NCBI GenBank assembly: GCA_963727725.1
Contig: CAVSHJ010000034.1
Location: 94,446 to 158,445, forward strand
DNA length: 64,000 bases
Direction: 5' to 3'
Origin: Thermodesulfovibrionales bacterium
GTDB lineage: Bacteria > Nitrospirota > Thermodesulfovibrionia > Thermodesulfovibrionales > SM23-35
Made by a program: the position numbers and the translations under genes
The notes under the pieces: model-generated
What the model saw: the letters and a program-made list of their open reading frames with translations, nothing else
Database searches by the model: none
What the model was told of the DNA's origin: nothing
In this document: piece after piece, positions 3,454-35,486 of the stretch
How the letters are laid out: each line of letters opens with the position of its first letter
Position numbering within the stretch: the first letter of the stretch is position 1

Positions 3454-4666
3454 ACTTTGACTGGTATTCTTTTACTCTGATTGCGAACTCCTTCCCGAAC
3501 TCGTAACAACGCTTCCAGTCTTCGCCGGATGGTTTATAGACGACTTGAACTCCCTGTTCAACGGTCTCCAGTCCCATTTTCTTTATCTCTTCGTATATGT
3601 CCCTTACTGCGCCGCCACCCCATCCATAGCTGCCGAATGCGCCGACAATGCGGTTCTTCGGTCTCAGGCCCCTTCAGGTAGGCCAGAAATTCAGCTATGG
3701 TCGGAAACATGGAATTGTTCAGAGTCGGTGACCCGATGAGGCATCCCCTTGCCTTCCAGAACTCTTTTACTGCAAGACTCACCGGACTTGCTCTCAGTTT
3801 TACTACTTTGACGTCAACGCCTTCGTCCTTTATTCCCTGCACCAACGGTACGGTCATCTGCTCCGTGCTGTGCCACATTGTGTCATAGATGATTACAACC
3901 TTCGTGTCAGCCTTCCCGTTAGCCATATCAAGATACATACCGGTAATAAGGGACGGGTCTTTTCTCCATATAATTCCGTGGTCGGGCGCTATCATATCGA
4001 TTTCAAGTCCCAGCTTTTGTATCTCCGCAATCTTGTTCTTTATGAGCGCGCCAAAAGGCATCAGGATGTTCGCATAGTAATCCTTCACCGCAGTCCTCAA
4101 GCTCGGATAATGAGAAACCGGCGATAAATTCGTCATCAAATCTGGCTGCCGATGCATAATGCTGACCGAATGCGTCCTGACTGATGAGAAGCTTATCTTC
4201 TCTCACGTAGGTCATCATGGAATCCGGCCAGTGCAGCATGGGAGTCTCCAGGAAGAGCAGATTCCTCCTGCCGATATTCAGGGTGTCTCCTGTCTTCACG
4301 ACTCTAATATCCCATTTCGATATGTCGAAAAACCTGCCGAGGCCCTTTTTCCCCCTGTCTGTTATATAGATAGTCGCGTCAGGCTGCAAGTTGCATGATG
4401 GCGCTGATGCCTGAGACGTGATCATTCTCGATATGGTTAACTATGATATTTCTTATCTTAGATGGATCTGTCAGGCCTTTTATATTCTCGATACTGACCT
4501 CGGCAAAATCATGCTTTACGGCATCAAGAAGGGTAATCTGGTCATCGAGGATTAGATAATTATTGTAAGTTGTTCCGTTCGGGGTAACATACCCATGGAA
4601 ATCCCTTACCGCCCAGTCAATTGCACCAACCCAGTAAATATCGGGTTTTATTTCCACCGCTTTCAT
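3450..4666 (-). pseudogene. flavodiiron protein (FprA/ROO-type O2/NO reductase), interrupted by at least 3 frameshifts
   Basis: The metallo-beta-lactamase N-terminus (MKAVEIKPDIYWVGAIDW...HIENDHVSG), the middle ([14 protein letters not shown]) and the flavodoxin C-terminus (VVIIYDTMWHSTE...GSPTLNN...GSYGWGGG) lie in different frames. They span ORFs 4379-4744, 4003-4425, 3558-4157 and a fourth frame ending at 3450. Confidence 0.8.
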
Positions 4667-5865: not shown

Positions 5866-6366
5866 ATGAACGCTATAGAGATAGCTATCAGGATGGAGAA
5901 AGACGCGATAAGTTTCTATACCGAGGCGGCGGGGAAAATAATAAATCCTGTCGGAAAGAAGATGTTTTTGTCCATAACGGAAGATGAGAAAAGGCATCTC
6001 CAGACCCTGTCCCGGATATTCAGGGAAGTTGATATCAAGATGGAAGAAGTGAGTCCGATGAAAAACATGCAGACCATCTTTCAGTCCATGAAGGATGAGA
6101 TGATGAAGAGGGTCCAGGCGACCGCAGACGAGCTCGATGCATTCAGGATCGCGATGCGGATGGAGAAAGAAGGCGTCGAATTTTATAAGAAGGCTGAAGC
6201 CGAAGCAGCGACGGAAAAAGAGAAGGCGCTCTTCGCCAGACTCATCAAAGAAGAGGAAGAACATTATGCTGTTTTTGCGAATACCCAATTTTTCCTTTCC
6301 GATACCGGCAGCTGGTTCATGTGGGAGGAGCACAGCATTGTTGACGGCGGCACGCCGTGGGCGTAA
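5866..6366 (+). CDS. rubrerythrin/ferritin-like diiron domain protein
   Basis: 166 aa. The helix pair is duplicated, with E...ExxH motifs: MEKDAISFY / EDEKRHLQ and MEKEGVEFY / EEEEHYAV. Confidence 0.65.
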   Translation: MNAIEIAIRMEKDAISFYTEAAGKIINPVGKKMFLSITEDEKRHLQTLSRIFREVDIKMEEVSPMKNMQTIFQSMKDEMMKRVQATADELDAFRIAMRMEKEGVEFYKKAEAEAATEKEKALFARLIKEEEEHYAVFANTQFFLSDTGSWFMWEEHSIVDGGTPWA

Positions 6367-8849: not shown

Positions 8850-10379
8850 ATGGAAAATTCAAAAGCGAAGGTTCTCTGCGTTGATGACGATCCCGATCTG
8901 CTCCTTATTAATTCGAGTATCTTGAAATTAGCCGGGCATGAGGTACTTGAAGCCACCGACGGCCATGCATGCATCGACATGATCAGGAAAGAACGGCCGG
9001 ATCTTGTCTTGCTTGATGTCATACTTCCGGACATGAGCGGTCTGGAAGTCTGCAGGCAGATCAAGACGACTCCCGGGATGACAGATACTTATGTGGTTCT
9101 GATCTCCGGTATGGAGACCTCGTCAAAAAGCCAGATCAAAGGACTGGAAGCAGGGGCAGACGGATATATCGTTCGCCCTGTCTCGTCACAGGAGCTACTT
9201 GCACGCGTTCAGGCCTTGATAAGGATCAAGAAAATGGAATCGGTTCTCCGGAAAAGCATGGAGCGGTATCAAATGCTGGTTGAAACAATGAATGACGGCC
9301 TTGGAATCCTGGACGAAAACGGGATAATCACCTTTGCCAACGATAAGGTCTGCGAGATGACGGGATTTTCAAGAGACGAGATCATCGGTCATTCCGTGAC
9401 CGACTTTATCAATGAAAATGACAGGACTACTTATGGGGGACACTTTAAGGAATATAAGAATGGTATTTCTGAACCCTTTGAACTCACATGTTTGAAGAGA
9501 AATGGTGAGAAGATATCTCTTATAGTGTCACCAAGGCCGATTCTTGATGATAACGGTAATTTCAGGGGGGCTTTTGCCGTTATGACGGACATCACCGGAC
9601 GCAAGAAATATGAAGAAGCCATCAGGAAACTGAATGAAGAACTGGAACGCCGGGTTGAAGAACGCACCGGTCAGATCAAGGCCGTGGTTGAAGAACTGGA
9701 AGAGGAGATTATAGAGCGGAAGAAAGTCGAGGAATCACTGAAAGAGAACGAAGAGAAATTCCGTGCGATAACCATGACTGCCACGGACGCGATTATACTT
9801 ATGAACGATGAAGGGAAAATTTCGTACTGGAACCCTGCCGCGGAAAAAATATTCGGCTATACGAAACAGGAGGCTGTCGGTAAAGGACTCCATACCCTCC
9901 TTTCACCTGCGGAGTACTATGATGCTTACCAGGAAGGTTTGCGTATCTTCAGAGAGACGGGACGCGGACCTGTTATCGGGAAAACCCTGGAGTTTCTGGC
10001 CATCAAGAAAGATGGGACAAAATTTCCGATAGAGATGTCCACTTCTGTCATAAACGTTAAGGGAAGGCGGGAGGCTGTCGGAATAATACGCGATGTCACA
10101 GAGCGCAAGCTGGACGAAGAAACTCTCCTGCGGTATGCGGAAAGGCTCCATACCCTTTCCAATCGCCTGATAGAAGTTCAGGAGTCGGAACGCCATCATT
10201 TCTCACATGAACTGCATAACGAGATCGGCCGGTCACTGACCGGACTGAGACTCTCCATAGAGGATATTGCTTCCCTGCCTCCGCTGGATGTTAAGGCAAG
10301 ACTCGGGGAAATACTGACCCGGGTCAAAGAGATCCTGGACAAGATGCAAAATGCACCGCTCAATATCAACTCTCAGTGA
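8850..10379 (+). CDS. response-regulator receiver + 2 PAS + HisKA_3 dimerisation domain protein; kinase ATPase domain absent
   Basis: 509 aa. REC domain (KVLCVDDDPD...DLVLLDVILPDMSG), coiled coil, two PAS regions, then a His-box (ESERHHFSHELHNEIG). The ORF stops about 55 aa after the His-box with no HATPase_c motifs. Confidence 0.75.
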   Translation: MENSKAKVLCVDDDPDLLLINSSILKLAGHEVLEATDGHACIDMIRKERPDLVLLDVILPDMSGLEVCRQIKTTPGMTDTYVVLISGMETSSKSQIKGLEAGADGYIVRPVSSQELLARVQALIRIKKMESVLRKSMERYQMLVETMNDGLGILDENGIITFANDKVCEMTGFSRDEIIGHSVTDFINENDRTTYGGHFKEYKNGISEPFELTCLKRNGEKISLIVSPRPILDDNGNFRGAFAVMTDITGRKKYEEAIRKLNEELERRVEERTGQIKAVVEELEEEIIERKKVEESLKENEEKFRAITMTATDAIILMNDEGKISYWNPAAEKIFGYTKQEAVGKGLHTLLSPAEYYDAYQEGLRIFRETGRGPVIGKTLEFLAIKKDGTKFPIEMSTSVINVKGRREAVGIIRDVTERKLDEETLLRYAERLHTLSNRLIEVQESERHHFSHELHNEIGRSLTGLRLSIEDIASLPPLDVKARLGEILTRVKEILDKMQNAPLNINSQ

Positions 10380-10485: not shown

Positions 10486-10827
10486 TTGCAAATGAGAGTT
10501 GACCTGCGAGGTGAGTTGTGCTCGAGGTTCTGTCCCTACTACAAGCCCGGTAAGAAAGAGGACCTCGCCTGCAAGGGTTTTCTTGTGATTGAAGGGCTGA
10601 TAAACAGAGGCCGGCAAATTCCGTTCTCTGTCACGGAAAAGAGGCCCGATCCCGCAATCCAGGAATCACTTTTACATAACCTCTGTGCCGTATGTCCTTT
10701 CTCGGAGGACGGTTGTGATTTTGTGCAACAGAAGGAAAGCTTCTCGCCATGCGGCGGGTTCATCTTGCTGGCTTATCTGCTGGGAGCGAACATCGTCACC
10801 ATTGACAACATAAGAGATGTAAGATAA
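10486..10827 (+). CDS. hypothetical Cys-rich protein
   Basis: 113 aa from a TTG start (an ATG lies at 10492). It has several Cys pairs (CSRFC, CAVCP, C..C). No clear RBS and no recognised family. Confidence 0.35.
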   Translation: MQMRVDLRGELCSRFCPYYKPGKKEDLACKGFLVIEGLINRGRQIPFSVTEKRPDPAIQESLLHNLCAVCPFSEDGCDFVQQKESFSPCGGFILLAYLLGANIVTIDNIRDVR

Positions 10828-10860
10828 ACTTTTTTCAAAAAAAGAGGGCAGGAGAAGAAC

Positions 10861-11328
10861 ATGGCAAAGTTTTCGGTGAGAGAAGTTGTGGAACAGGCTG
10901 TTCAGACGGAAAAGATCGGCAATGAGTTCTATTCTTCTATGGCAGGCAAATTCCGTGAGAACCATGAACTGAAGGAGCTCTTCGAAGTACTCGCTTCCCA
11001 GGAATTAAAACACGAAAAAATCTTCACTGAGTTAGAAAAGCAGATCAGGGACGGAGAGCCCGAGGGATGGGATGAGGTCTCACTCTATTTGAGGGCCCTT
11101 GTCGATTCGGAGTTTTTTCTCGGCAGGGACAAATCCCTTTCGGCAATTGGGAGCGTAAAAACAGCGGCAGAGGCGATCAAATTTGCACTCGGCTTTGAAA
11201 GAGAAACATTGCTCTACTATCATGGTCTCAGGGAAACGATAAAAGAAGAAGACGTTATTGATGAAATAATAAAAGAAGAGAAAAGGCATATCGTATGGCT
11301 GAACAATCTGAGAAAAAGTTTTGTGTAG
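10861..11328 (+). CDS. rubrerythrin/ferritin-like diiron domain protein
   Basis: 155 aa. E...ExxH motifs: TEKIGNEFY / SQELKHEK and FERETLLYY / KEEKRHIV. Confidence 0.65.
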   Translation: MAKFSVREVVEQAVQTEKIGNEFYSSMAGKFRENHELKELFEVLASQELKHEKIFTELEKQIRDGEPEGWDEVSLYLRALVDSEFFLGRDKSLSAIGSVKTAAEAIKFALGFERETLLYYHGLRETIKEEDVIDEIIKEEKRHIVWLNNLRKSFV

Positions 11329-11331
11329 GTC

Positions 11332-13067
11332 TTGGACTATTCCCTGAAAATAGGCGGTGAGGCGGGACAGGGCATTCAGACCATCGGAGATACTCTTGCG
11401 AGGGTATTTTCGCGGTCAGGGTACCATGTCTTCACCCATCAGGACTACGAGTCCCGCATAAGGGGCGGCCACAATTTCTTCCAGATACGGTTTTCGGATA
11501 AACCTGTCACGGCGTCCAGAGACAGAATCGATATCATTGTCGCGCTGGATAAGGAGAGCATATCACTTCATGAAAAAGAACTCGCACAGAACGGTGTCAT
11601 TATCTATGATTCAGGTATGATCGGTCATCCCCTTACACCTTCTTCAGAAAAGGAAGGCGGGAGTAGATTCCTGGATATCCCTTTTGTCAGTCTAGCGACG
11701 GAACACGGCGGCAGCAAGATAATGGCCAACACGGTTGCAACCGGAGCTGTTTTGGGGGTGCTGAAACTCGGTCCGGATATCCTCATCAGCATTATAGAAA
11801 GCGCCTTCAAGAAGAAGGGCGAAGATATTATCAATGCAAATATAAAGGCGGCGCAGTCCGGATATGATTTTGCGGTGAAAAGCTGTCTGCAATGTTCCTT
11901 CTCGGCTGCTTCCCCGTCCGAACCAAAGATGTTGATAGCGGGAATCGATGCTATCGCTCTTGGAGCTATTGCATCCGGGTGTAAATTTTATTCAGCATAC
12001 CCCATGACGCCTTCCACAGGGATTATGAATTATCTGGCGGGGAAAGAGCAGGAATACGGAATTATCGTGGAACAGGCGGAAGACGAGATTGCTGCGATAA
12101 ATATGGCGTTGGGCGCGTCCTTTGCGGGTGTCCGGGCAATGACGGGCACGGCAGGAGGGGGCTTTGCATTAATGGTCGAAGGACTGTCCCTGGCGGGGAT
12201 GACGGAGACACCTGTAGTTATTGCAGTCGGACAGAGACCGGGACCCGCAACCGGTCTGCCTACGAGGACGGAACAGGCTGATCTGCTGTTCGTCCTGCAT
12301 GCCGCGCACGGGGAATTTCCGAGGGTCATATTTGCGCCGGGCACTCCGGAACAGGCGTTCTATCTGACGAATAAGGCATTCGATATCGCGGAGAAATACC
12401 AGGTCCCTGCCTTTATAATCTTCGACCAGTACCTGGCTGATTCGGAGTGGACGTTTAAGGGATTTGATCTGGAAAAGACCACCTATAGAGATTACAGAAT
12501 GAGAGGGGACAAACTGAAAGAACTGAGCGGTTACAAGAGGCATGCCCTTACAGAGACAGGCGTGTCTCCTTTAGGGGTTCCGGGAGATTCAAAACACCTG
12601 ATCGTAACCGACAGCGATGAACATGATGAGGAGGGGCATATCATAGAAGATGCTGAAACGAGGGTCAGGATGGTCGAAAAGAGACTGCTGAGGAAACTGC
12701 CGCTGATAAGAGCAGGAAATAGACGCTCCGTCTTTATATGGAAGCGGTCAGCCTGAAATAGTGATCGCAGGGTGGGGTTCCACATTCGGTGTGATGAAAG
12801 AGGTGACGGATATACTTTCAAAAGATAAGAATATCGCCATGCTTCATTTCAGCGAGATTTACCCGTTTCCCTGCCGGGAAGTCAGATTATCTGAAGATCC
12901 TTGAGAATGCAAAGCTCTCTGTCTGCATTGAGAATAACGCGACAGGGCAGTTCGCGCGCCTCATGAGGACTGAGACGGGATATGAATTCAAGGCCAGGAT
13001 CAATAAGTATGACGGCAGACCTTTTACGGTGGAAGGTCTTTTGGACCGTTTAAGTCATATTCTATGA
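11332..13067 (+). pseudogene. korA: 2-oxoacid:ferredoxin oxidoreductase alpha subunit (fused gamma-alpha), about 2 frameshifts near the 3' end
   Basis: Gamma-like N-terminus (IGGEAGQGIQTIG) and alpha core (YPMTPSTGIMNYL). The C-terminus continues in other frames (EIVIAGWGSTFG... then LENAKLSVCIENNATGQFARL...), with shifts near 12715 and 12870. Stop at 13065-13067. Confidence 0.8.
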
Positions 13068-13217
13068 TTATTGACAGACACAGTATTTTCGCTCATTCTC
13101 GTCCCGATGCCGAAGGCGGACGGGACTCCGAGGGCAATTCTTTCTTCCAAAGAATTGAAATCCGCTCAAATGCTATATCTGTCAATAACTTTATTGATGA
13201 TCCGCGATGGGGGGAAA

Positions 13218-14069: not shown

Positions 14070-14218
14070 TCCGAAGCAGCCGGTTTTCCTGGAGCGAAAT
14101 TATGGATATTTGTTTCAAAAGGAGATCGTAGCATGAGCACATCGAGAGAGCAAATGCAGCAAATCTTCGGTTGAGAGGTAGAGTCTTGTCTCTTTTGAAT
14201 GACAATATTTACTAATAA

Positions 14219-14375
14219 GGTCATAAGTAAAGACACATAAAATTTTATTCGTCATGCCCGAAGTCCTTAGTCGGGCATCCATGGTTTCACATGAAAACGG
14301 GAATTTGATTCCTCAAATGGATTCCCGCTTTCGCGGGAATGACGAGTGATGTGATCTTACTTATGAACTCCTTAG
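14219..14375. mobile_element. MITE-like element with terminal inverted repeats and internal GGAATGAC-type hairpins
   Basis: Termini AAGGTCATAAGTAAAGA (left) and TCTTACTTATGAACTCCTT (right) are imperfect inverted repeats. Internal hairpins: GTCATGCCCGA..TCGGGCATCC and GGATTCCCGC..GCGGGAATGAC. No coding capacity. Confidence 0.5.
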
Positions 14376-22828: not shown

Positions 22829-23975
22829 TCAGTACAGTATATTGCTTAACGTATCCGAACGCTCTTTGTCTATGCCTTCCAGAGTTTCACATTCGTCAAA
22901 AGCCGCATTTGAATCCCCGTTCAGAAAATAGGCGATGCCGAGATTGAAGTGAGCATCAGCATCACCCGGATCGATATTTATGGCTTTCTTGAATGCAGCG
23001 ATGGCCATCGGATATTTACGATCGAGGATATATAATGATCCGAGTTTGTTATAAAGTGAAGCTGAATCAGGCTGTTTTTTAATCGCCTGTTTATAGGCGT
23101 CGATCGCTTCATCGTATTGTCCGATTTTATAGTAATCCGTGCCGAGACTCACGTATGCGTCCATAAGGTCCGGATTAAGAGTCAGCGACTGCCGGTATTC
23201 TCTTGCCGCCTCTCTGAACATGTTCAGTCTGTCGTAAGCGCATCCGCGTGAAAAATAGTCCTCCGGGCCAAGGGGTTTCTTCTCTTCTCCTATCCCCTCC
23301 ATCAGGTGCGGTGGACTGCTTTTAATTGAAGATGCGATCCTTTCATATCTCTCAAGCTGTCTTGCAATACCCTTCAGAGAAACAGCGAAGGAAATATTCC
23401 TCCCTTTCCCCGGCAGGGATATTGCCGCGCCTATGGCTTCGCCTTTCATATTGAATACGGGGCTTCCGTTCTTCGAAGGCGGAACGGCCACGGACAGATT
23501 AAAAAGCGTGCCATTCCCGCGGACAGCCCTGACGACAGCTTCCCTGATAGGGACCGAAGGACCCGATGCAACAGCGACGCGTTCCCTCCGGACCGGTTTA
23601 TGGTCTTTCGCAATTCTGACCGCGGGGAGATCTCCCGCCACAACTTGTAAAAAGGGCGAGATTATTCTCACACCGGGAAGAGATCAGATCATCCATGCGA
23701 AACCGGACACCTCCTCCGGTTTCAACCGTGAGCACGTTCTCAATCTTCTCGAACCATTTTACTATGATACGACAGTTTGTCGCGATAACCCCGCGCCGGT
23801 CCACAATGAATCCCACGGCTGAAGCAATATGTTCTCCACTCCTGTCATCGACATATACGGTTACCACGGCGTCTCTTTGCTTTGAGACGTTATCCGGCAC
23901 CTTCGCATAAACAGAGGAAGTCAAAAAAGGCAGGAGAAATATGGCGATGAATATTCTCTGCAAAAAAATCTGCAT
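22829..23975 (-). pseudogene. secreted trypsin-like protease domain fused to TPR repeats; 1 frameshift
   Basis: Signal peptide (MQIFLQRIFIAIFLLPFLTSSVYA). The N-terminal S1-like segment (AVVTVYV...SAVGFIVDRRGVIATNCRI) is in ORF 23598-23999. The continuation and C-terminal TPRs (YFSRGCAY...AYVSLGTDYYKIGQYDEAIDAYKQAI...) are in ORF 22829-23671. Shift near 23640. Confidence 0.55.
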
Positions 23976-23997
23976 TTCCCGATTCGAATACTCCGCC

Positions 23998-24140
23998 ATT
24001 CATAGCGAACTTTGTTCAAACGTTGATGCCCTGGGTTGTCATTCCCGCTTGTCGGGAATCTTTCTGAAAGCGAAGAGAGATTCTGGACAAGCCAGAATGA
24101 CAAATTAGATATCTTAAACAACTTTTAGATCTTTAAAGAT
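23998..24140. repeat. ~143-bp MITE-like double-hairpin element (copy A)
   Basis: Contains GTCATTCCCGCTTGTCGGGAATC and TTCTGGACAAGCCAGAATGAC hairpins. Its reverse complement aligns along its full length with 53711-53853. Confidence 0.7.
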
Positions 24141-24187
24141 TAATAGCATAAAATATTATAATAACTGGATGGAGAAATTTTAAACTC

Positions 24188-24216
24188 TTGACTGACATTT
24201 ATCCATACTGTAATCT
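24188..24216 (+). promoter_or_regulatory. sigma70-type promoter candidate
   Basis: TTGACT (24188-24193), N17, TAATCT (24211-24216), about 48 nt upstream of the macA-like ATG. Confidence 0.35.
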
Positions 24217-24263
24217 CATTATCTTTACGAAGTCCTGAATCAATCCGGGAGGAGCATATATTT

Positions 24264-25483
24264 ATGGCAAATGAAGATCTCTCAAAATTGAAGATCGACA
24301 AGAACGCTGAAAGCTATAAGCCGCGAAAGCAAGCGCAGACGGATATACTGGGTCGCTGCATTTTTCCTGATCGCAGCATTTGGAATCTTTTACGCGGAAG
24401 GTATTTTTTCGCCTGCAATACAGATCGAGGTCGCAAGTGTTTCGCAGATTTATCCCTCACAGACTTTCACCCTCCTGAACGCAAGCGGCTATGTGGTCGC
24501 TCAGCGCAAGGCTGCCGTTGCGTCAAAAGTAACAGGTCGCCTCGTGTCACTTTCGGTGGAAGAGGGCAGCAGGGTGAAAGAAGGCCAGGTGATCGCAAGA
24601 CTGGAAAGTGATGACGTAGCTGCTGCGCGCGATCAGGCTGAGGCTAACCTGAACGCTGCACGTCATAACCTTGAGGAGGCAAAAGCCGACCTGAATGACG
24701 CCGACCTTTCCTTTAAGCGGGACAAAGACTTAGTGGCCCAGGGTTTTATTTCGAGAGCCGAGTACGATACCGCCGAAGCGCGGTACAAAAAAGCGGCCGC
24801 AGCGGTGGCCGCAGCTCAGGCGGAAATCAAGGCCAGTACCGCGGCGCTGCAGGGCGCAAAAGTTGCATTGGAGTACACTGTAATCCGCGCTCCCTTTGAC
24901 GCCGTAGTATTAACAAAGAATGCGGATATAGGCGATATCGTCACTCCGATCGGAGCTGCTGCCAACGTTCAGGCTGCAGTAGTGACAATCGCCGACATGA
25001 ATTCACTCCAGGTCGAAGCCGATGTCTCCGAATCCAACCTCCGCCTTGTGAAGACAGGCCAGCCCTGCGAGATACAACTCGATGCTCTTCCTGATGTGCG
25101 TTTCAGGGGAGTTGTGCACATGATCGTACCTACGGCAGACCGCAGTAAGGCTACGGTGTTGGTGAAAGTACGGTTTATAGATAAGGACAGCAGGATATTG
25201 CCGGAAATGAGTGCAAAAGTGGCTTTTCTTTCAAGGGAGGTCAGGGGTGATGAGCAGAAATCGCGCACCGCTGTCCCGGCGCATGCAGTGGTGACCCGGA
25301 AAGGGAAACAGTCGGTGTTTCTTGTGAAGGGTGACAGGGTGAAAGGAAATACCGATAACAACCGGTGAAACCTTTGGCGACATGATCGAAGTCCTTGGAG
25401 GTGTGAAGACGGGTGACAGGATAGCAGTCGGGCCGATGGATAAATTGAGAGACGGCAGCAGGGTCAAGATCATCGAAAAATAA
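24264..25483 (+). pseudogene. efflux periplasmic adaptor (HlyD/MacA family); 2 frameshifts
   Basis: The N-terminus (MANEDLSKLKIDK), the TM plus core (RRIYWVAAFFLIAAFG...VASKVTGRLVSLSVEEGSRVKEGQVIARLE, coiled coil, beta-barrel) and the C-terminus (...GDRIAVGPMDKLRDGSRVKIIEK) lie in three frames. Shifts near 24330 and 25340. Confidence 0.75.
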
Positions 25484-27337: not shown

Positions 27338-28505
27338 ATGAAAATACCTTTTTCATATAGCCTTCGAAATCTCTTCACACGCAGGCTTACGACATTCCTG
27401 ACCGCTTCGGGAATGGCGCTGGTGGTTTTCGTATTTGCAGCGGTGCTGATGCTTGCGGAAGGACTTCAGAAAACACTGGTCGAGACCGGTTCATATGAAA
27501 ATGTAGTAGTTATACGCAAGGCAGCGGGATCTGAAGTGCAGAGCGGTATCGATCGGGTGCAAGCCTCAATTGTCGAAACACAGCCGGAAATTGCGACCGG
27601 TACCGACGGCAAACCGCTGGTCGCCAAGGAACTGGTGGTGCTCATCGCGCTGCCAAAACGCGGGTCCGACAAGCCTTCAAACATCGTTATACGCGGAATC
27701 GGCGGGAAGTCGATGGCCCTGAGGCCCCAGGTAAAGCTGGTCGCAGGGCAGAATGCCGCGTCCCGGCTCGTCGGAGATCATTTCCGGATCGAGCATCGCG
27801 AAACGGTTTCAGGGTGGAGGGATGGGAGAGAAGCTCCGTTTCGCCATGAGGGATTGGACGGTTGTCGGTGTCTTTGACGCGGGAAACTCCGGCTTCAATT
27901 CCGAGATATGGGGAGACGTGGACCAGTTCATGCAGGCCTTCAGAAGGCCCGCATATTCCTCCGCGATCTTCCGGCTGCGCGAGCCTTCGGAGTTTGAAAA
28001 GGTCAGGTCACGGATAGAGCATGATCCGCGTCTGACGCTCGAAGCAATGCGGGAAACCGAGTATTACAGGAAGCAGTCGGAGATGATGGCGAAATTTCTG
28101 CGCATACTCGGTCTTACACTCACCGTAATCTTCTCGCTCGGCGCGGTAATAGGCGCCATGATTACTATGTATTCCGCCGTAGCAGGCCGTGTTTTTGAGA
28201 TAGGCACCATGCGGGCGCTGGGTTTTCAGAGAAGGAGTATCCTGTCGGCATTCCTCATGGAGGCGCTTCTCCTCGGTTTTCTGGGAGGCGCTGCCGGGTT
28301 GTTCTTCGCGTCCTTCCTCCAGTTCTTCACGGTTTCAACGCTCAACTTCCAGACATTCTCGGAACTCGCTTTCACCTTTTCTCTGACCTTCGGGATCATT
28401 TACAAGGCTCTGGCTTTCTCACTGGTGATGGGCTTTGTCGGCGGCTTGCTCCCCGCTTTCAGAGCCGCGCGTATGAATATCGTGGAGGCATTAAGGGCGA
28501 GTTAA
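27338..28505 (+). pseudogene. second ABC transporter permease, FtsX/MacB-type; 1 frameshift
   Basis: The N-terminal part (ORF 27338-27877) and the C-terminal FtsX part (ORF 27753-28505, ...GGLLPAFRAARMNIVEALRAS) are in different frames. Shift near 27748. Confidence 0.75.
28473..28505 (+). repeat. direct repeat, left copy (last 10 codons + stop of the permease gene)
   Basis: ATGAATATCGTGGAGGCATTAAGGGCGAGTTAA is 30/33 identical to 34622-34654. All three differences are synonymous or stop-to-stop. Confidence 0.85.
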
Positions 28506-29253
28506 CCTGAAAAGTGCAGACATTGTTCAAAAAATTATGTAACCCGATGATTTATTATAGGTATCTCGTTTCGGTTAACAAAATCTTCTTTATCGTGAAA
28601 TGCATCTGATTGCGAAACATGAGGCATGCGTGCGGCAAAAGCTCTCCGGCAGCTCCTTCATGGGCGATCATTTATCCGGCATTCCTGCAGATTTCGATTT
28701 TAAGCGGAGGGCGTGGCCTTGCCAATTTCTGCAAGGGTTAATGCCCGGAGCGGATTAAAGCAGGACAACGGTATGAGGCAAATCCCGAACTTGTTTCGGG
28801 AGCAAACTCACACGGTTGCTTTCCGCATCTCCCTTTGCCTTCGGGAGGACAGATGTTGTTGGAAGGAGAGGGGATGCACTTTGCCGGAGTTTACGAGGAC
28901 AATGTGCAGGAGTAAGGATGGGGCGAGGACCCTTTCTTTTATGATCGTATATATTTCTTTTGAACCGAAATATGCCCGGCGCAGTCCTTCATTTTATACG
29001 CACTCAGGAAAATTGTCACGAGAGAATAGTATATTTGCAAACAAATGCGTTTCAAAAGCTAAATGTGTGAAAATTATTCACAAGAGATGTTCTCGCGCGG
29101 GGAGCCACAAATTGTCTGCACTTCTTCATCTTTTGTCGTTCCAAAAGCCTCTATCTCATAACCAGAAAAATTAATAGGATAGAAATTCAAATCACCTATC
29201 TTTTCTTGTCAATAAGATACGTTTTAAAAGTTCATAAATATATTTAATTTGCT

Positions 29254-29271
29254 ATTTAGCATGTGCTAAAT
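29254..29271. promoter_or_regulatory. 8-2-8 perfect palindrome, candidate operator
   Basis: ATTTAGCA-TG-TGCTAAAT, 42 nt upstream of the ATG at 29313. Confidence 0.3.
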
Positions 29272-29312
29272 TACAATTCTCTTGAATCTGATCATTATAA
29301 TGGGAGGAAGAA

Positions 29313-31193
29313 ATGGAAAGAAACAGAAATATACGATCAATCTTAGCAAAATATCTTCTCTTGTTGTCTATTCTGCTCTTACTACCTACTTACACTTTTG
29401 CTTTAGAATGTAAGAAATGTCAGGAAGATTTTAATGGAACCGTTTGCACAGATTCTGAATGCCCGGAGACTCCTGTTGTTGACCAACAAACGGAGGCTGC
29501 ACGGCTATTCCAAGGTGACACTTCTATTTCTATGGAAATTTCGTCATCTACTGAGGAAACCGGACTGTCCCTTGCGGCAAGTCTCCCGGATCCTAATGAA
29601 CCAATAGACGTCTTAACAGCATATTTAGAAGAGATGGAAAAGGTAAAGCAGTCGATCAAAAAAAGACTCTTTGATGAGCCTATAAATACTGGTGGTGCTA
29701 CCATTGAGGCTTGGCTTGAAGCAGCAGGGAATTTATTGTCATTCAAAGAAAAATACCCTGAGAGTCGCCACATTTTTGAAGGATTAGGGAGAATTTATAA
29801 AGAACTCTGGATTCATACACAAGAAAATACGTATCTCTTAAAAGCAGCGGATGCATTTATCCAGGCTGAAGATATGGGCATAAAATACGGAATAAAGTAT
29901 GATGAGATCGTGAACGCATCACATTATATTGATGAAGTCGCTGATATTTTATCAATCTTATCTGATCGTCAGCGACTGGATAAATATTTCTCGAGAGTCC
30001 TTAAATTGAATCCTGAAAACTATTATGCTTACCTTTACTATGCAAAAGCTCTTTCGAGATTGAATGATAAGAGAGCAGATAAATATTATGAAAAAGCTAT
30101 TTCCCTGAGACAGCAGGGAGATTTTCAGCCTGTTGTTGATTACGCGGAGCATTTGCTGGATAGGGAAAAAGATAAGGAGGCATTAGATGTAATACAGCTA
30201 TTAACAAATCCCTCGGAATATGATGCCTTTTATCCTCACTTTCTGAAGGGTCTGGCGCTTGAGAGAATGGGCCGACTCGAAGAAGCGGAGGAAGAATATA
30301 ATAAATATTCCAAATTCAGAGATATACCAAAAACATCCGCGAATGAAAACGAAAGGAATATACCTGTTGATGATGTTTTCTTTAGACCACCTTCACGATA
30401 TAAAATTCCCCATAGCACGCTGCAAAAGGATATCATTTTTAGCGGCGCAATTTCGGACGTGATGCTTATGGCTACTAGTAGAGCCACTCCTGCTTGTGCT
30501 AGCAATGATTGGGCATGCAAGGCACGCTATTATATGGTTTGGACAATCAACGGTGAGGCAGAGAAATCCGGTGCATACGGGCCTGGAACACTGGGAATGA
30601 TGAGAGCAGTCGGGTGGAACATCAGAACAAGGGTTTTTAATCTGAGAGGGCAAATTATATCTACAGGATGTAGTGGCACGTGTTACGCCAACGCAACGCA
30701 ATATCCGTTGACTGACATTAATTCTCTATATAAACGCTATTATTATGTAATTGATACTGGCGGGTATGCCGGACTTGCAATAGGCGGTTACACTGCCAAA
30801 TCAGAACAGGTATTTTTTGATGTACTTTATGGCAGAGTTCCGGATCCTATCGTTCCAGGGTGCGTTTACGGTGGCTTGAGCGGAAGCTGGTGTGAAGGCA
30901 GTTGTACAGGTTCTGGCTTATGGAACTCTTTCCCATCATCTCGAAGCGGACAACAGTTCAGGGCGGGTCGATTAAAGTCATATTGGGATCCTCTGAGTGG
31001 TGACTCATGCTATCAATTCCTCCCAATGTCTGTACCCGCGGGTGCTTTTTGCAATAAATCCTGTTGGGCAGAAAAAGGAGCGATATGTCCCGTAACAAGA
31101 ACTCTATCCGGGCTTTGTCATAATCCTTGGCAAGGCTTTTATGATTATACGGGACCTGTATATGGGAACTTTTTTTGGAGATTTAACCAGTAA
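29313..31193 (+). CDS. secreted protein: signal peptide, TPR-like helical region, Cys-rich C-terminal domain (possibly SleB/Hydrolase_2-like)
   Basis: 626 aa with a GGGAGG RBS and an N-terminal hydrophobic signal. The middle has TPR-like repeats (YYAYLYYAKALSRLNDKRADKYYEKAI). In the C-terminus, WTINGEAE...MRAVGWNIRTRV...QQF...GNFFWRF loosely resembles the cell-wall hydrolase SleB domain. That domain call is weak. Confidence 0.6.
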   Translation: MERNRNIRSILAKYLLLLSILLLLPTYTFALECKKCQEDFNGTVCTDSECPETPVVDQQTEAARLFQGDTSISMEISSSTEETGLSLAASLPDPNEPIDVLTAYLEEMEKVKQSIKKRLFDEPINTGGATIEAWLEAAGNLLSFKEKYPESRHIFEGLGRIYKELWIHTQENTYLLKAADAFIQAEDMGIKYGIKYDEIVNASHYIDEVADILSILSDRQRLDKYFSRVLKLNPENYYAYLYYAKALSRLNDKRADKYYEKAISLRQQGDFQPVVDYAEHLLDREKDKEALDVIQLLTNPSEYDAFYPHFLKGLALERMGRLEEAEEEYNKYSKFRDIPKTSANENERNIPVDDVFFRPPSRYKIPHSTLQKDIIFSGAISDVMLMATSRATPACASNDWACKARYYMVWTINGEAEKSGAYGPGTLGMMRAVGWNIRTRVFNLRGQIISTGCSGTCYANATQYPLTDINSLYKRYYYVIDTGGYAGLAIGGYTAKSEQVFFDVLYGRVPDPIVPGCVYGGLSGSWCEGSCTGSGLWNSFPSSRSGQQFRAGRLKSYWDPLSGDSCYQFLPMSVPAGAFCNKSCWAEKGAICPVTRTLSGLCHNPWQGFYDYTGPVYGNFFWRFNQ

Positions 31194-31285
31194 CAGGATA
31201 CCGTCTGAATTTTTTTAGACACTGATAAGACAGGGCAGTCAGAGAGAAAAGTGCAGGATTAAGATTTATCTCGCTTCTTTCTTTT

Positions 31286-32641
31286 GTGAAGAGAATGTTA
31301 GCGCTAATCGATCAAGAAGAGAGAACAAATATTACGAGAGCATGCGAAGACACTTCAAGAAAGAAGCACCTGATCAATGAGGTAATATTGACAAAAAAGA
31401 CCATCATCTTATTTCTACTCTTTACTTTAGTAAATTGTATTTCGGCTGGCGCTAGACAGACAAAGCAGCCTTCTAATGAAAGACGGATTGTTGTTCTTCT
31501 CGCAGGCATTAAACCTTCCGGTGAATTAATGGACACGGTTCATGAGAATAAAAAGGTGTTAAAAGCCATCGGTTTATTTTTGCAGATGAGAGAAACGAAT
31601 GCTATGTGTGAAGAAGCAATGATATTGCGCCTTGACAATTTATTCGACAAAGCGGGATGGGCGGAAGGGATACCCGCAATAAGCATAAAACGTGTAAAAG
31701 ATAAATTATATCTTGTTGGCGTGGGGGCGGCTGCGTCAAGCCAACCGAGTAGCCTTTATCTCTATTATGATTCTGCTTATCACAGAATAGCAACGGGACA
31801 AACCGGCCTGATTCAAGTGATCGATTACAGATTGATCGGGAATAAACTCGGGGTAATCTTTAATCGGATGCCGGGCTCCACCGCCTTTCAACCGGGCTTT
31901 GCTTTATTAAGCAAAAAAGATGACAAATGGAATACCTGCTGGACGCCGGAACGTGAGAAAACGTGGATCGACGCAGACGGACAGGTCAAGTTTCTGAAAG
32001 ATAATTTATCTCTTATAGAGGTGAAAGGCTCATCTTTTGGTCTACCGGCAGCAAAAAAAACGCAAAATGATGTCTTTCCCGAAGACCATGTTGGAATGCA
32101 TAGATTTTTTCTTTCTGTTTGGGAAAAGGAAGACTGCACCTATGCCAGAAGAACAATGTTGCCTCATGATGCGCCCTTTTATGACAAGTTATGGGAGATG
32201 ACCGATTTTTCGCCATCTTTATCTTTTTATACTCCATATGCCACCGTCTTCGAATTCATAAGGAGGCTCCGAGAAGGAGAAGATGACAGGGCAGCCCAGT
32301 TATCAAGCAAAATAGTAGTCGATAAGGCAAAGGAATACGGACTGGCCGAGGCATTCGATTCACGTGGCAAGATTATTTACTACCATTGGGAGCCGGGCTA
32401 TTCTACCGAAGAAGAAAATAAAATTTCAGAAAAGCATGCGTGTTGTGAAGTTGATTTTTTTTATAGAGAGGGACCTCTTGAACGTTTTGCCGTTTTCCTC
32501 AAACCTATTCCTCTGCCGTCAGACCAACTGCGGTGGCAAATTGCAGATTTGAAGGAACTGAAAGACAATAATAAATCACACTATAAAGATGATAAAATAG
32601 GCGAAATAGGTTCAGCCAAGGATATTTTTGCCCTTCCATAG
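31286..32641 (+). CDS. hypothetical membrane-anchored/secreted protein
   Basis: 451 aa from a GTG (an ATG lies at 31295). One hydrophobic segment (IILFLLFTLVNCISAG). No recognised motif. AT-rich codon usage like its neighbours. Confidence 0.55.
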   Translation: MKRMLALIDQEERTNITRACEDTSRKKHLINEVILTKKTIILFLLFTLVNCISAGARQTKQPSNERRIVVLLAGIKPSGELMDTVHENKKVLKAIGLFLQMRETNAMCEEAMILRLDNLFDKAGWAEGIPAISIKRVKDKLYLVGVGAAASSQPSSLYLYYDSAYHRIATGQTGLIQVIDYRLIGNKLGVIFNRMPGSTAFQPGFALLSKKDDKWNTCWTPEREKTWIDADGQVKFLKDNLSLIEVKGSSFGLPAAKKTQNDVFPEDHVGMHRFFLSVWEKEDCTYARRTMLPHDAPFYDKLWEMTDFSPSLSFYTPYATVFEFIRRLREGEDDRAAQLSSKIVVDKAKEYGLAEAFDSRGKIIYYHWEPGYSTEEENKISEKHACCEVDFFYREGPLERFAVFLKPIPLPSDQLRWQIADLKELKDNNKSHYKDDKIGEIGSAKDIFALP

Positions 32642-33030
32642 AGTACGCTTTACGGAACCTCTTTACGTGCTGGTACCGAAGTATGTTTCAACGGGAATCA
32701 ACTGGTGTCAGAAATTCTTGCAACGAAGAACTTCTATGTGTACGGAACGAAAGATGGCTGTTTCCGACAGGGTAAACTGTTACACCTTGTCAGAATTCCA
32801 AGGACTTACCAATCGGTCAAGGAAGGGCACAATAAAATAATAGCAATTTTGTTTAATCAGCAGACCGCAGACTGTATTTCTTTAAATCTTCAGGAGAAAG
32901 CTCTTCATGTGGTACAAGTCTATAGTGTTTCTCTGAGACTATGACGATTCCGCGATGCCAAGTTTATCTGTCCCGCCTTTAGTTAGTACCCCGTTATCCG
33001 TTCCACTGTGTCGGCATAAACCACATGATT

Positions 33031-34623
33031 TCAATTGCTGCCGGCAGGCACGTACAATAGGAAGTTATCTGTCAGAGGATTACTTATTTCTTTTTTTTGC
33101 CAGCCTGAGAGTTCAGCGTATTCTATTAAAGGGGCCTCCAAAACAATGTACTCGAAACCGACAAGAACGGCGTCAGGGGGCTTCTTCTGAAGAAGTCCGG
33201 GCAAGGAACGCGCGTCGATGCTCACAGCGTCATGACGTTGACTATCGGAAAGAAAGGGGCCATATCTGAAAAGAAACGGACCGGTGGACAATTCCCGGTA
33301 TATTCTTTCACCTCCTTCAAGAGCAAATATCGGGGCAAGAGTAAGGATGAGCTTGTCAGGACCGGCAATATCGGCAATTTTCCTGGAAATAGCGTAAACG
33401 CGGGAAGGAATCCAGTTCTCCTCCGAAAATGCGATCTTAATGTTTCCGAGAGTCTGCTTTTCGGAAAGACCCACCGCAATAGTACTCAGTACAATAATGA
33501 CCGCAAATACATGGGCAATTATATTCTTTCCCGATCTCTTGTCGCCGGTGGACATATTACCGGATACAGCATAAGCGATGGTGACCAGAAAAAACGGAAC
33601 CGGTGCGGCAAAATACTGAACTTGCATGGGCGTAACAAGGAAAGCGGCAAATATCATCGCCATTGCCACTGAGGAAGAAATAACCAGCGGAATCTTCTTC
33701 CTATCAAGACGATTATAAGTGCTTACTGCCAGGATGCAGGAAAAGAAAAAGAGAATGAAGAGTGCAAGATATGAAGGATGCGTGAAAATGGTAAAGGTCA
33801 TGGACAGCTTTTCCTTAAAATCTATGGCCGCCTGCCAGCCCGGAAACCAATGCTGAGCACCGGTAACGCGGAAATATTGTATCGTATCAAAGATGAATGA
33901 ATCCGGCGCCTGAAAAAGATAGTAAATCGCCACAAGTGACGGCAAAGTTGCCCCGGCGAGAAAAGGCAGGAGCAATCTTTTGCACCGGATATCCCGGGAG
34001 ATCGGAACCAAAAATGCCATAACAAGGAGAAATGCAAGGCTGGCAAGAGCAAAACTTATACGTGTAAAAACTGCTATACCATTAAGAAAACCCGCTAAAA
34101 ACAGCGTTCTTCTCTTAAAAGGCCTTGAGAAATCCAGGCTTGCCAAAACCAGGTATGCAAGCAGTATGCATAGAATCGGTAATGTATGGTTCCATGCACG
34201 GCTGCCGGCGTTGAGTATCTGCGGATTAAATGAATACAGGACTGTGGCAGAAATTCCCAGGACAACACCTCTCACCCTTTGATCGCGAAAGGCACGGATG
34301 AATGCCATCAGGACAAGAACCATCGTGAGTACCGAGCAGGTTACGGAAAAAACCCGTCCTACAAAAAGATAGTTCGTTGTCTTAAAAAGAGTGAAAAGAA
34401 AGGCATAGATAACGGGAAGCAATGGCATTTGCAGATAGGCGAAATCCTTGTACATGGCTTGCCCTGAGGATATAAGTGCTCCTGCAGTGCAGTAGAGGTT
34501 TTCGTCATGATCAAACCCTTGCATGGCCGAACCAAATAAAAGAAATGTCATCATCAGAATTACGACAGCTGCACCGGCATAGATCAAGATACTACGCCAC
34601 ATTGACGTTATACGTGAGCGCAT
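33031..34623 (-). CDS. polytopic membrane glycosyltransferase, GT-C fold (PMT_2/ArnT-like)
   Basis: 530 aa with about 12 predicted TM helices. The N-terminal loop DHDENLYCTAGALISSGQAMYKDFAYLQMPLLP resembles the DE..Y...G..pY.DF....PP motif of ArnT/PMT-family enzymes. Its start codon overlaps the right direct repeat. Confidence 0.6.
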   Translation of the reverse strand: MRSRITSMWRSILIYAGAAVVILMMTFLLFGSAMQGFDHDENLYCTAGALISSGQAMYKDFAYLQMPLLPVIYAFLFTLFKTTNYLFVGRVFSVTCSVLTMVLVLMAFIRAFRDQRVRGVVLGISATVLYSFNPQILNAGSRAWNHTLPILCILLAYLVLASLDFSRPFKRRTLFLAGFLNGIAVFTRISFALASLAFLLVMAFLVPISRDIRCKRLLLPFLAGATLPSLVAIYYLFQAPDSFIFDTIQYFRVTGAQHWFPGWQAAIDFKEKLSMTFTIFTHPSYLALFILFFFSCILAVSTYNRLDRKKIPLVISSSVAMAMIFAAFLVTPMQVQYFAAPVPFFLVTIAYAVSGNMSTGDKRSGKNIIAHVFAVIIVLSTIAVGLSEKQTLGNIKIAFSEENWIPSRVYAISRKIADIAGPDKLILTLAPIFALEGGERIYRELSTGPFLFRYGPFLSDSQRHDAVSIDARSLPGLLQKKPPDAVLVGFEYIVLEAPLIEYAELSGWQKKEISNPLTDNFLLYVPAGSN

Positions 34624-34654
34624 GAATATCGTGGAGGCATTAAGGGCAAGCTAG
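34622..34654 (+). repeat. direct repeat, right copy (orphan permease 3' end)
   Basis: ATGAATATCGTGGAGGCATTAAGGGCAAGCTAG encodes MNIVEALRAS*, the same peptide as 28473-28505, but has no gene body upstream (in-frame stop at 34580). Confidence 0.85.
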
Positions 34655-34853
34655 AAAGGCTCAATATCGCAAGTTCATCCTGTTATTCGGATTGACACAT
34701 ACGCACCTGTCCCGCATATACATATGGCGGACTCCATATGATCATGCAAAACAGAGGCAATGATCAGGACAGATACAGAGATTTTCGAGTGCAAAGAAAT
34801 TCAGGCAATCTTTCCATTTTCTTCCATCGGCCTCCTTTACAGGTTTATGTCAG

Positions 34854-35486
34854 TTATATGTTCCTTGAAGGACAAATATCATAGAGGACGCATTCACTGT
34901 GCACAGGCTTTTTTGCCTGGCATACCTTTCTGCCGTGGAATATCAGAAGGTGGGAAAGGTTCCCCCATTCTTTTCCGGGTGTGATTGCCATCAGGTCTTT
35001 TTCGATCTTAACAGGGTCTTCGTTTTTTGTAAGTCCGAGCCTCTGGGAGAGTCTTCTGACGTGGGTATCCACAGCTATGCCTTCATTGATGCCAAAGGCG
35101 CCGGAAAGTATTATGTTGGCTGTTTTCCGGGCCACGCCGGGCAGGGTGACGAGTTCGTCCATTGTTTTTGGCACTTCTGAGCGGAATTTTTCGGCTATCA
35201 TCTTTGCTGCGGCCTGAATGTTTTTTGCCTTGGTCTTATAGAAATTTACGGAGTTAACATCCTTCTGAAGTGTTTCGAGCGGGACGTGTGCATAGTCTCC
35301 CACCGTTCTGTATTTCTTGAAGAGATTTTCCGTGACCTTATTCACCAATGTGTCCGTAGTCTGCGCGGAGAGTACTGTCGCAACGAGAAGTTCAAAGGGA
35401 CCGGTGAAGTTAAGAGCCGTCCTGGGTCGCGGATATTCTTTTCTTAATCTTTTTATAATCTCAGCTATTTTTTCTTTTGCGGTCAT
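34854..35486 (-). CDS. nth: endonuclease III
   Basis: HhH-GPD motif (LPGVARKTANIIL), catalytic region (AVDTHVRR) and a C-terminal Cys cluster (C..C...C.....C). Confidence 0.9.
   Translation of the reverse strand: MTAKEKIAEIIKRLRKEYPRPRTALNFTGPFELLVATVLSAQTTDTLVNKVTENLFKKYRTVGDYAHVPLETLQKDVNSVNFYKTKAKNIQAAAKMIAEKFRSEVPKTMDELVTLPGVARKTANIILSGAFGINEGIAVDTHVRRLSQRLGLTKNEDPVKIEKDLMAITPGKEWGNLSHLLIFHGRKVCQAKKPVHSECVLYDICPSRNI

Follow-up and report, generated by a model that had tools for sequence, protein, structure and literature searches.

How do new genes enter a bacterial chromosome at a place that carries the marks of an insertion but no recognisable agent of one? The question is raised by a stretch of 64,000 nucleotides (nt) from a Thermodesulfovibrionales bacterium (contig CAVSHJ010000034.1; the whole stretch is called the window here), in which the 33 nt that close the second FtsX/MacB-type permease gene of an efflux operon recur 6.1 kb downstream, near the end of the convergent gene nth. 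Three genes lie between the two copies, designated TPR626 and hyp451 (both on the plus strand) and memb530 (on the minus strand). An initial annotation, made from the letters alone, had described the segment as one AT-rich insert bounded by attL/attR-like repeats. We find that the insertion reading is right and that the att-site reading is not supported; the explanation that we favour, and to which we give somewhat better than an even chance, is that this hypervariable junction between convergent genes received several illegitimate insertions in succession, the first of which left the repeat behind as a duplication of its target.

Results

The duplicated permease end and the empty site

Re-reading of the window letters bears out the repeat pair as first described: the two 33-nt copies stand at the expected positions (Table 1), offset by 6149 nt and identical at 30 of 33 positions, and translation of either copy gives MNIVEALRAS followed by a stop. 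By its Pfam matches and by the map of open reading frames (ORFs), copy 1 is the genuine end of the second permease gene. A direct-repeat search lets the repeat grow to 36 nt with 33 identities (28469-28504 / 34618-34653), and its exact core of 26 nt occurs exactly twice in the window with up to three mismatches permitted, the mean count in 100 dinucleotide-preserving shuffles being 0.00. A search of the window for a third, degenerate or longer copy of the permease tail found none. Direct repeats (33/36; 0 by chance) thus flank the insert at a conserved target.

The relatives supply what the initial annotation had predicted, namely an empty site at which the permease gene runs straight towards nth. 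The closest genomes are metagenome-assembled genomes (MAGs) of the Thermodesulfovibrionales (Nitrospirota). Two loci, L092 and L093, match the window at 94-95% identity across the efflux operon and at 93% across nth-apgM, and have only 7 nt between the permease stop and the nth stop; compared with them, the whole of 28506-34853 (~6.3 kb) is extra in the window. In the farther relatives L003, L005 and L023 the permease likewise runs into nth, and the synteny of nth is kept in L003, L023 and L092. These empty-site relatives support an insertion bounded by the duplicated permease 3′ end, and the insert is a genuine insertion at the permease/nth junction. The extent first assigned to it, 28473-34654, holds in that the repeats bound it, but not on the right, where 34655-34853, between copy 2 and nth, is also absent from L092 and L093, the closest empty-site relatives. 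The permease-nth spacers of L002, L003, L005, L021 and L023, compared with both repeat flanks, gave no alignment above shuffles.

States of the junction and make-up of the insert

What the repeats enclose differs between close relatives. In L083, a Joint Genome Institute (JGI) metagenome contig with ~94% identity to the window in the efflux operon, a spacer of 13-33 nt separates the permease stop from the memb530 segment (window 32983-34702, 96.8% identity), copy 2 included, and the same repeat pair encloses only ~1.7 kb there, compared with 6.1 kb in the window. Because L083 has the same repeats around ~1.7 kb, the window insert is not one 6.1-kb element; the L083-type unit is nested within it, and window 28506-32955 (~4.45 kb) is a separate difference from L083. 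L091 carries yet other content downstream of nth. The junction is found in at least four states in close relatives: empty, with memb530 only, with memb530 plus segments A, B and C, and with L091-type content.

The insert, taken at first for a single unit with attL and attR at its ends, instead comprises at least four segments of separate origin, A to D (Table 1). The repeat pair of L083 surrounds memb530 only; segment B is 92% identical to a block located after ispD/ispF in L088; the L091 counterpart of segment C lies past two small ORFs downstream of nth; and segment A, which begins right after the permease stop, is absent from L083, L088, L091 and L092. At the B/C joint the L088-type and the L091-type homologies overlap by 10 nt, which constitutes a microhomology. 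For the A+B+C block no target duplication was found: there is no permease-tail copy at its ends and, by eye, no repeat in its flanks. A 9-nt match between the L083 spacer and window 28563-28571 is within chance by our estimate. A 16-nt exact pair at the L088 module, one copy of which lies deep inside selB, was considered and judged not interpretable.

The right junction (memb530, copy 2 and the nth side) is real, being present in two other assemblies, L083 and L081, the latter a Logan contig (SRR18214521) that matches the window at 99.8%, segment B included. The first 29 nt of L081 (GATTATTTTCCCTACTGTCTGAATTGCAG) diverge from window 28999-29027 and match nothing among the fetched loci, and the point of divergence coincides exactly with the left boundary of the TPR626/hyp451 block; the sample may have a different left context here, or the end of the contig may be an artefact. 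Exact look-ups of the nth protein of the window, of its C-terminal permease ORF and of P0033 gave no record, and with that no independent copy of the left junction.

The cargo gene that adjoins copy 2

The family of memb530 is rare, with 22 matches among 5.8 billion proteins. PMT_2 is matched by 6 of 19 homologues, and the AlphaFold model, with a predicted local distance difference test (pLDDT) score of 86, finds ArnT (5f15) in Foldseek at E=1e-7, as well as PglB, AglB and DPY19; the protein is predicted to have a GT-C glycosyltransferase fold. Its homologues are found within glycosyltransferase clusters (L084, L085) or in different surroundings (L086, L087), and none of these adjoins this permease. 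The N-termini of the homologues start with MKLFxN... and are ~10 residues longer: memb530 in the window is without ~10 native N-terminal codons and without its native upstream region. DNA homology to the native context, as seen in L084, reaches to ~3-10 nt from copy 2; on the other side ~40-75 nt of the native 3′ flank is kept, and the L084 homology fades ~40 nt beyond the memb530 stop. Segment D and copy 2 overlap by ~9 nt, imperfectly, in a comparison made with this nearest native context. The homology thus reaches almost to copy 2: what was inserted is a fragment with an arbitrary end inside the cargo gene, and no space is left between memb530 coding homology and copy 2 for an element arm. 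The right boundary, read earlier as an element end, is consequently better described as an arbitrary breakpoint in front of a gene that has lost its own start.

The start codon of the ORF arises at the junction itself: the ATG of memb530 (34623-34621, minus strand) consists of the first two bases of copy 2 plus C34621, where copy 1 has T. Between window and L083 the gene has a ratio of nonsynonymous to synonymous divergence (dN/dS) of 0.23, and is on that measure evidently under purifying selection. It is oriented as nth is, and no terminator-like site was found on the minus strand between nth and memb530. Given the shared orientation, read-through from apgM-nth could express memb530, and we regard expression by this route as plausible.

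History of the repeat copies and age of the block

It is informative to compare the two copies across lineages. In the window copy 1 ends in GCATTAAGGGCGAGTTAA and copy 2 in GGGCAAGCTAG; in L083 copy 1 is ATGAACATCGTGGAGGCGTTGAGGGCAAGTTAA and copy 2 is ATGAATATCGTGGAGGCATTAAGGGCAAGTTAA. The last of these is identical to the consensus of all four copies, and for this reason the copies can have been identical at birth. Judged from the sequences, the simplest history, in which two copies started out identical and changed later, would be compatible with these data: the functional copy shows 4 synonymous changes over two lineages and the dead copy 2 changes. That both changes in the dead copy fall at third codon positions is not significant. 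The proposal that synonymous-only divergence reflects evolution as coding sequence in different backgrounds is thereby unneeded, as all four copies are derivable from one sequence.

Synonymous divergence (dS) between window and L083 is 0.071 for memb530 and 0.17-0.235 for the efflux genes. The lower value indicates that the block made up of memb530 and copy 2 (plus ~48 nt) is younger than the backbone split, which leaves room for homologous exchange through the repeats or the flanks.

Similar duplications at other loci

All 91 sources (1.42 Mb) were compared with themselves for direct repeats that duplicate gene ends. In L011 a perfect 35-nt pair (13097-13131 / 14212-14246) surrounds a 1.08-kb HEPN/nucleotidyltransferase pair between convergent genes, and one repeat copy forms the genuine 3′ terminus of a ComM/YifB-like gene; the scar seems to be a recent and undamaged one of the same kind. 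The HEPN and nucleotidyltransferase genes are toxin-antitoxin-like. In L085 a 156-nt pair (96%; 4179-4334 / 6170-6325) surrounds a full-length memb530 homologue, the insert lying between overlapping GT4 and PIG-L genes such that each copy preserves one of them, that is, the GT4 end or the PIG-L start. In L090 a 40-nt pair (1178-1217 / 5967-6006) repeats the opening codons of a phosphoribosyltransferase gene on either side of a 4.75-kb insert with homologues of TPR626 and hyp451 and a CAP-domain gene; a HEPN/nucleotidyltransferase pair adjoins it. Finally, in L024, a Geobacteraceae MAG from a different phylum, a ~170-nt duplication (10719-10890 / 12080-12245) extends over the permease tail and a terminator hairpin into the 3′ end of a convergent CvfB-like gene, and the 1.2-kb insert encodes a small membrane protein and a protein whose Tlde1 domain scores slightly under the Pfam threshold. 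Among the ~80 permease loci scanned, of >560 that match, L024 is the only second independent duplication of the permease tail, making two cases in total.

The repeat sequences are mutually unrelated, except for those of L024 and the window, which both contain the conserved permease tail; no ends are common to the inserts. Terminal inverted repeats were sought at the ends of the six repeat-flanked inserts and none was found, the scores lying below the shuffle range. Unrelated repeats, unshared ends and missing inverted repeats together point to a generic process that is not site-specific. Most other direct-repeat pairs in the 1.42 Mb are palindromic elements of the repetitive extragenic palindromic (REP) or terminator-like type, or conserved motifs, and not scars. 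Palindromic REP- or terminator-like repeats occur in L014, L025, L032, L045 and L058. In the Geobacter-type loci L013 and L025 a repeat of 32-46 nt is present in several copies (~8870-9570; L025 440-472, L013 5215-5246) and sits between the two permease genes and elsewhere.

Signs of mobility

As the initial annotation had noted, no integrase or transposase is to be seen. Scans of the cargo proteins with Pfam and NCBIfam were negative for integrase and transposase families and for Cas1, the cargo ORFs matching TPR only; no tyrosine or serine recombinase lies beside the repeat in the cargo ORFs, and segment A is without a convincing ORF. There are no tRNA genes in the window, and an Rfam scan of the insert gave nothing notable. 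A discrete element with constant ends is likewise not seen: the unit measures 1.7 kb in L083 and 6.1 kb in the window, and its right end lies inside a cargo coding sequence. The duplications, at 33-170 nt, fall outside the 2-15 bp of the target-site duplications of DDE transposons, insertion sequences, MITEs and casposons.

Gene content and composition of the window

Upstream of the insert lies the efflux operon in the order HlyD, ABC ATPase, permease, permease, and to its right apgM accompanies nth on the minus strand. The features discussed here are collected in Table 1.

Table 1. Features at the permease/nth junction, in window coordinates
Feature	Position	Strand	Description
Second FtsX/MacB-type permease gene (permease 2)	27338-28505	+	Pfam FtsX + MacB_PCD; HlyD-ABC-permease-permease efflux operon
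Repeat copy 1	28473-28505	+	Last 10 codons + stop of permease 2 (MNIVEALRAS-stop), functional; ATGAATATCGTGGAGGCATTAAGGGCGAGTTAA
Segment A	28506-29000		~495 nt, no convincing gene; GC 0.469
Segment B	29001-32741	+	Two-gene module TPR626 + hyp451; GC 0.409
TPR626	29313-31193	+	626 aa; TPR, signal-peptide-like, Cys-rich C-terminal part; GC at third codon positions (GC3) 0.35
hyp451	31286-32641	+	451 aa, uncharacterised, without family match; GC3 0.41
B/C overlap	32732-32741		10 nt, TTCTATGTGT; L088-type and L091-type homology both match
Segment C	32742-32955		~214 nt, non-coding; 80% identity to L091 11484-11706
Segment D	32956-34621	-	memb530 fragment; 96.8% nt identity with L083
memb530	33031-34623	-	530-aa GT-C-fold (ArnT/PMT-like, predicted) membrane glycosyltransferase; 5′-truncated
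Repeat copy 2	34622-34654	+	Dead relic of the permease 3′ end, without gene body; ATGAATATCGTGGAGGCATTAAGGGCAAGCTAG
Spacer, copy 2 to nth stop	34655-34853	-	Decayed small Cys-rich ORF remnant, ~34707-34819
nth (endonuclease III)	34854-35486	-	NCBIfam TIGR01083, 257 bits; conserved right-hand neighbour

Orthologues of permease 2 are intact, at 388 aa, in L001, L083 and L092. In the alignment, the gene in the window is split by one additional G near 27743 into ORFs 27338-27877 and 27753-28505; this extra base (27690-27800 region, ~27743) is relative to L083 and L001. The frameshift is either a real pseudogenisation beside the islet or a sequencing error. An ORF that spans the A/B joint (28713-29174) has no family match. 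TPR626 gave solely TPR-type matches. The structure model of hyp451 is poor (pLDDT 58), and its family is rare, with 10 matches among 5.8 billion proteins. In the spacer between copy 2 and nth, the small Cys-rich secreted-type ORF that is intact in L091 (140 aa, 10670-11092) has left a decayed 5′ remnant; the window is without ~135 nt that L083 (7591-7887) has at 34702, and the ORF is interrupted by stops in the window and in L083 alike.

The description of the insert as AT-rich stands in part. A composition shift exists, from a GC content of 0.536 in the efflux operon, the genes of which have GC3 values of 0.57-0.68, to the values in Table 1; but the drop is uneven, the memb530 segment having a GC content of 0.462 (GC3 of memb530 0.47), and nth in the flank itself reaches only 0.464. 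Elsewhere in the window a low-GC stretch (23250-24270; ~0.41 around 23.75-24.5 kb) lies upstream of the efflux operon, where identity to L083 drops to 81-88%, compared with 91-97% farther on; this may be another variable spot.

Discussion

The observations are most readily accommodated if the islet is a composite without a recombinase of its own, built by microhomology-type insertions between the efflux permease gene and the nth operon. In a first step, common to the window and L083, a chromosomal fragment of ~1.7 kb would have entered the permease gene within its final 33 nt; this fragment would have comprised the GT-C gene, cut ~10 codons into its 5′ end, and would have ended a few tens of nt past the stop. 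In the repair, 33-36 nt would have been duplicated, and here we infer that a staggered break was filled in or that synthesis switched template backwards. Copy 1 would thereby preserve the permease C-terminus, and the relic, copy 2, would front the truncated cargo gene and supply part of its start codon, with memb530, in the orientation of nth, probably expressed by read-through. In a second step, confined to the window lineage, a mosaic of ~4.45 kb (A+B+C) would have been joined right after the permease stop; for this second step, the order of insertion as opposed to deletion is inferred. Selection would ensure that the events which survive are those that leave the flanking gene ends whole.

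Several observations weigh against this account. The duplicating mechanism itself was not observed, and the microhomology between segment D and copy 2 is imperfect. The second step left no target duplication, and a deletion in L083 could stand in its place; the left junction (28505/28506), together with segment A, is supported by this assembly only. Memb530 with copy 2 is ~3x less diverged between window and L083 than the efflux genes are, and on these sequence comparisons one ancient event appears insufficient, such that later lateral spread or homogenisation must be added. Furthermore, the left edge of the L024 duplication falls 0-4 nt from the same permease codon as that of the window, and a rough estimate puts the random chance of such a shared edge at only a few percent; with two cases in all, chance may still account for it.

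The shared edge and the young block bear directly on two rival explanations. The minimal length for RecA-dependent exchange is close to 26 nt, and the exact core of the repeat is of this length; a Campbell-type event, that is, a single RecA-type crossover with circular or looped-out DNA carrying 26-33 nt of the permease tail plus cargo, would duplicate the tail, and through the same repeats the islet could later be looped out and passed from strain to strain. Distant taxa have almost the same 26-mer (in L082 the sole difference is at a wildcard of the search pattern, in L001 one base differs), the low dS of the block relative to the backbone fits later spread, and the left edge common to two lineages would be explained if that edge is the start of the conserved block. 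We nonetheless consider such an origin unlikely, since it needs a prior molecule in which the tail already abuts a truncated memb530 and therefore still requires an illegitimate founding event; in addition, the differences between the L083 copies would force the crossover into the last 12-14 nt, and the duplications of L011, L085 and L090, with their mutually unrelated repeats, are left without an account. Site-specific integration, in which the repeats would be attL and attR of an element that targets the conserved permease tail and brings a replacement gene end with it, and whose integrase has been lost or acts in trans as for a cis-mobilisable element, seems to us distinctly unlikely, even though direct repeats at the 3′ end of a conserved gene, a copy 1 that restores the ORF, an independent duplication in L024 that begins at the same codon and a block younger than its backbone, as for mobile DNA, are all what it would lead one to expect. 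The cargo proteins have no recombinase domain, the minimal unit of L083 is a truncated gene that runs to a few nt from copy 2 and leaves no space for an arm, the same cargo families occur elsewhere between quite different 40- and 156-nt repeats, the insert ends are neither conserved nor inverted repeats, and different backgrounds for the two repeat copies are not required. It is also worth considering that in Nitrospirota and Desulfobacterota the 33-170-nt duplications mark the activity of an insertion process that acts in trans and has so far gone unrecognised, which we regard as improbable. The modules that these duplications surround are promoter-less and recombinase-less units of one or two whole genes: GT-C (twice), TPR/hypothetical, HEPN-nucleotidyltransferase and Tlde1-like pairs. 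By analogy with Cas1 at a CRISPR repeat, a candidate agent could be a ruler-type integrase that attacks two sites ~35 nt apart; another could be the capture of reverse-transcribed mRNAs, a route that would account for the 5′ truncation and for boundaries that look like those of transcription units. Under such a process, the left edge common to the window and L024 would be a preferred target.

Two further possibilities are of a different nature. A chimeric assembly, in which contigs of different genomes were joined at the common 26-mer, is very improbable: the left junction with segment A is found in this assembly only, the 29-nt tip of L081 differs from window 28999-29027 and the permease gene is frameshifted, but the right junction is present in L081 (99.8%) and L083, the join of permease stop and memb530 segment occurs independently in L083, and a misjoin would not give copies 6.1 kb apart with collinear, L092-matching flanks on both sides. 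Equally hard to credit is the idea that copy 2 is the last remnant of another paralogous (third) permease gene overwritten by later insertions. The operon does already have two paralogous permease genes, and copy 2 is in frame to its stop; against this, the empty-site relatives have a single copy directly before nth, copy 2 matches the tail of permease 2 and not that of permease 1, and the permease similarity ends abruptly 33-36 nt from the stop, where memb530 homology begins.

Most small flexible gene islets of bacteria are without mobility genes, and the route by which they entered is rarely visible. Four junction states, a gene-end scar, a truncated cargo gene and a microhomology joint make the present locus an unusually readable case of step-wise gain at a convergent gene pair. 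It also illustrates that the scar can provide the start codon of a captured gene without a promoter and a neighbouring gene, probably, the transcription. If duplications of 33-170 nt prove to be a general signature, they would be usable for dating and counting such insertions genome-wide, and could help to ask which repair pathway produces them.

Comparison with known systems

Transposable elements and casposons are similar to the present case in that a direct target duplication flanks the insertion. They differ in its length, 2-15 bp as opposed to the 33-170 nt seen here, where there are moreover no terminal inverted repeats, no transposase or Cas1 match in the cargo proteins, and cargo families that are rare. 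The likeness to att islands, which carry an integrase and occupy the 3′ ends of tRNA, tmRNA and protein genes, goes further: a conserved gene has its 3′ end within the direct repeats and is kept whole by the proximal copy, and the cargo has an atypical composition. In contrast to such islands, the insert has neither an integrase nor conserved element ends, its smallest form amounts to one truncated gene, what the same repeats enclose varies in close relatives, and the cargo families are found elsewhere between unrelated repeats.

Scars of illegitimate, homology-facilitated and double illegitimate recombination are known in naturally transformable bacteria. As in these, foreign or ectopic DNA appears here to have been joined at microhomologies without a dedicated recombinase, with a mosaic result and with arbitrary breakpoints that fall within genes too, as in the truncated memb530. 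Short-patch events of this sort are the subject of a related paper (bioRxiv 10.1101/2023.11.22.568220). The present locus differs from such scars in that kilobases are carried and the target duplications measure 33-170 nt; in the literature searched, we came upon no account of modules without a recombinase that are flanked by long target duplications.

Flexible genomic islets at hotspots between core genes, and the “morons” of phages, are likewise well known. They share with this locus a single junction of conserved genes that receives varied small cargo (none; memb530; memb530 with the TPR module; other content), in modules that seem to be whole genes, memb530 excepted, and that are oriented for read-through. 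The difference is that the gene-end scar and the microhomology joint here record how the pieces were joined, and it is in this sense that gene gain by steps and without a recombinase, a known kind of event, can be read from the locus.

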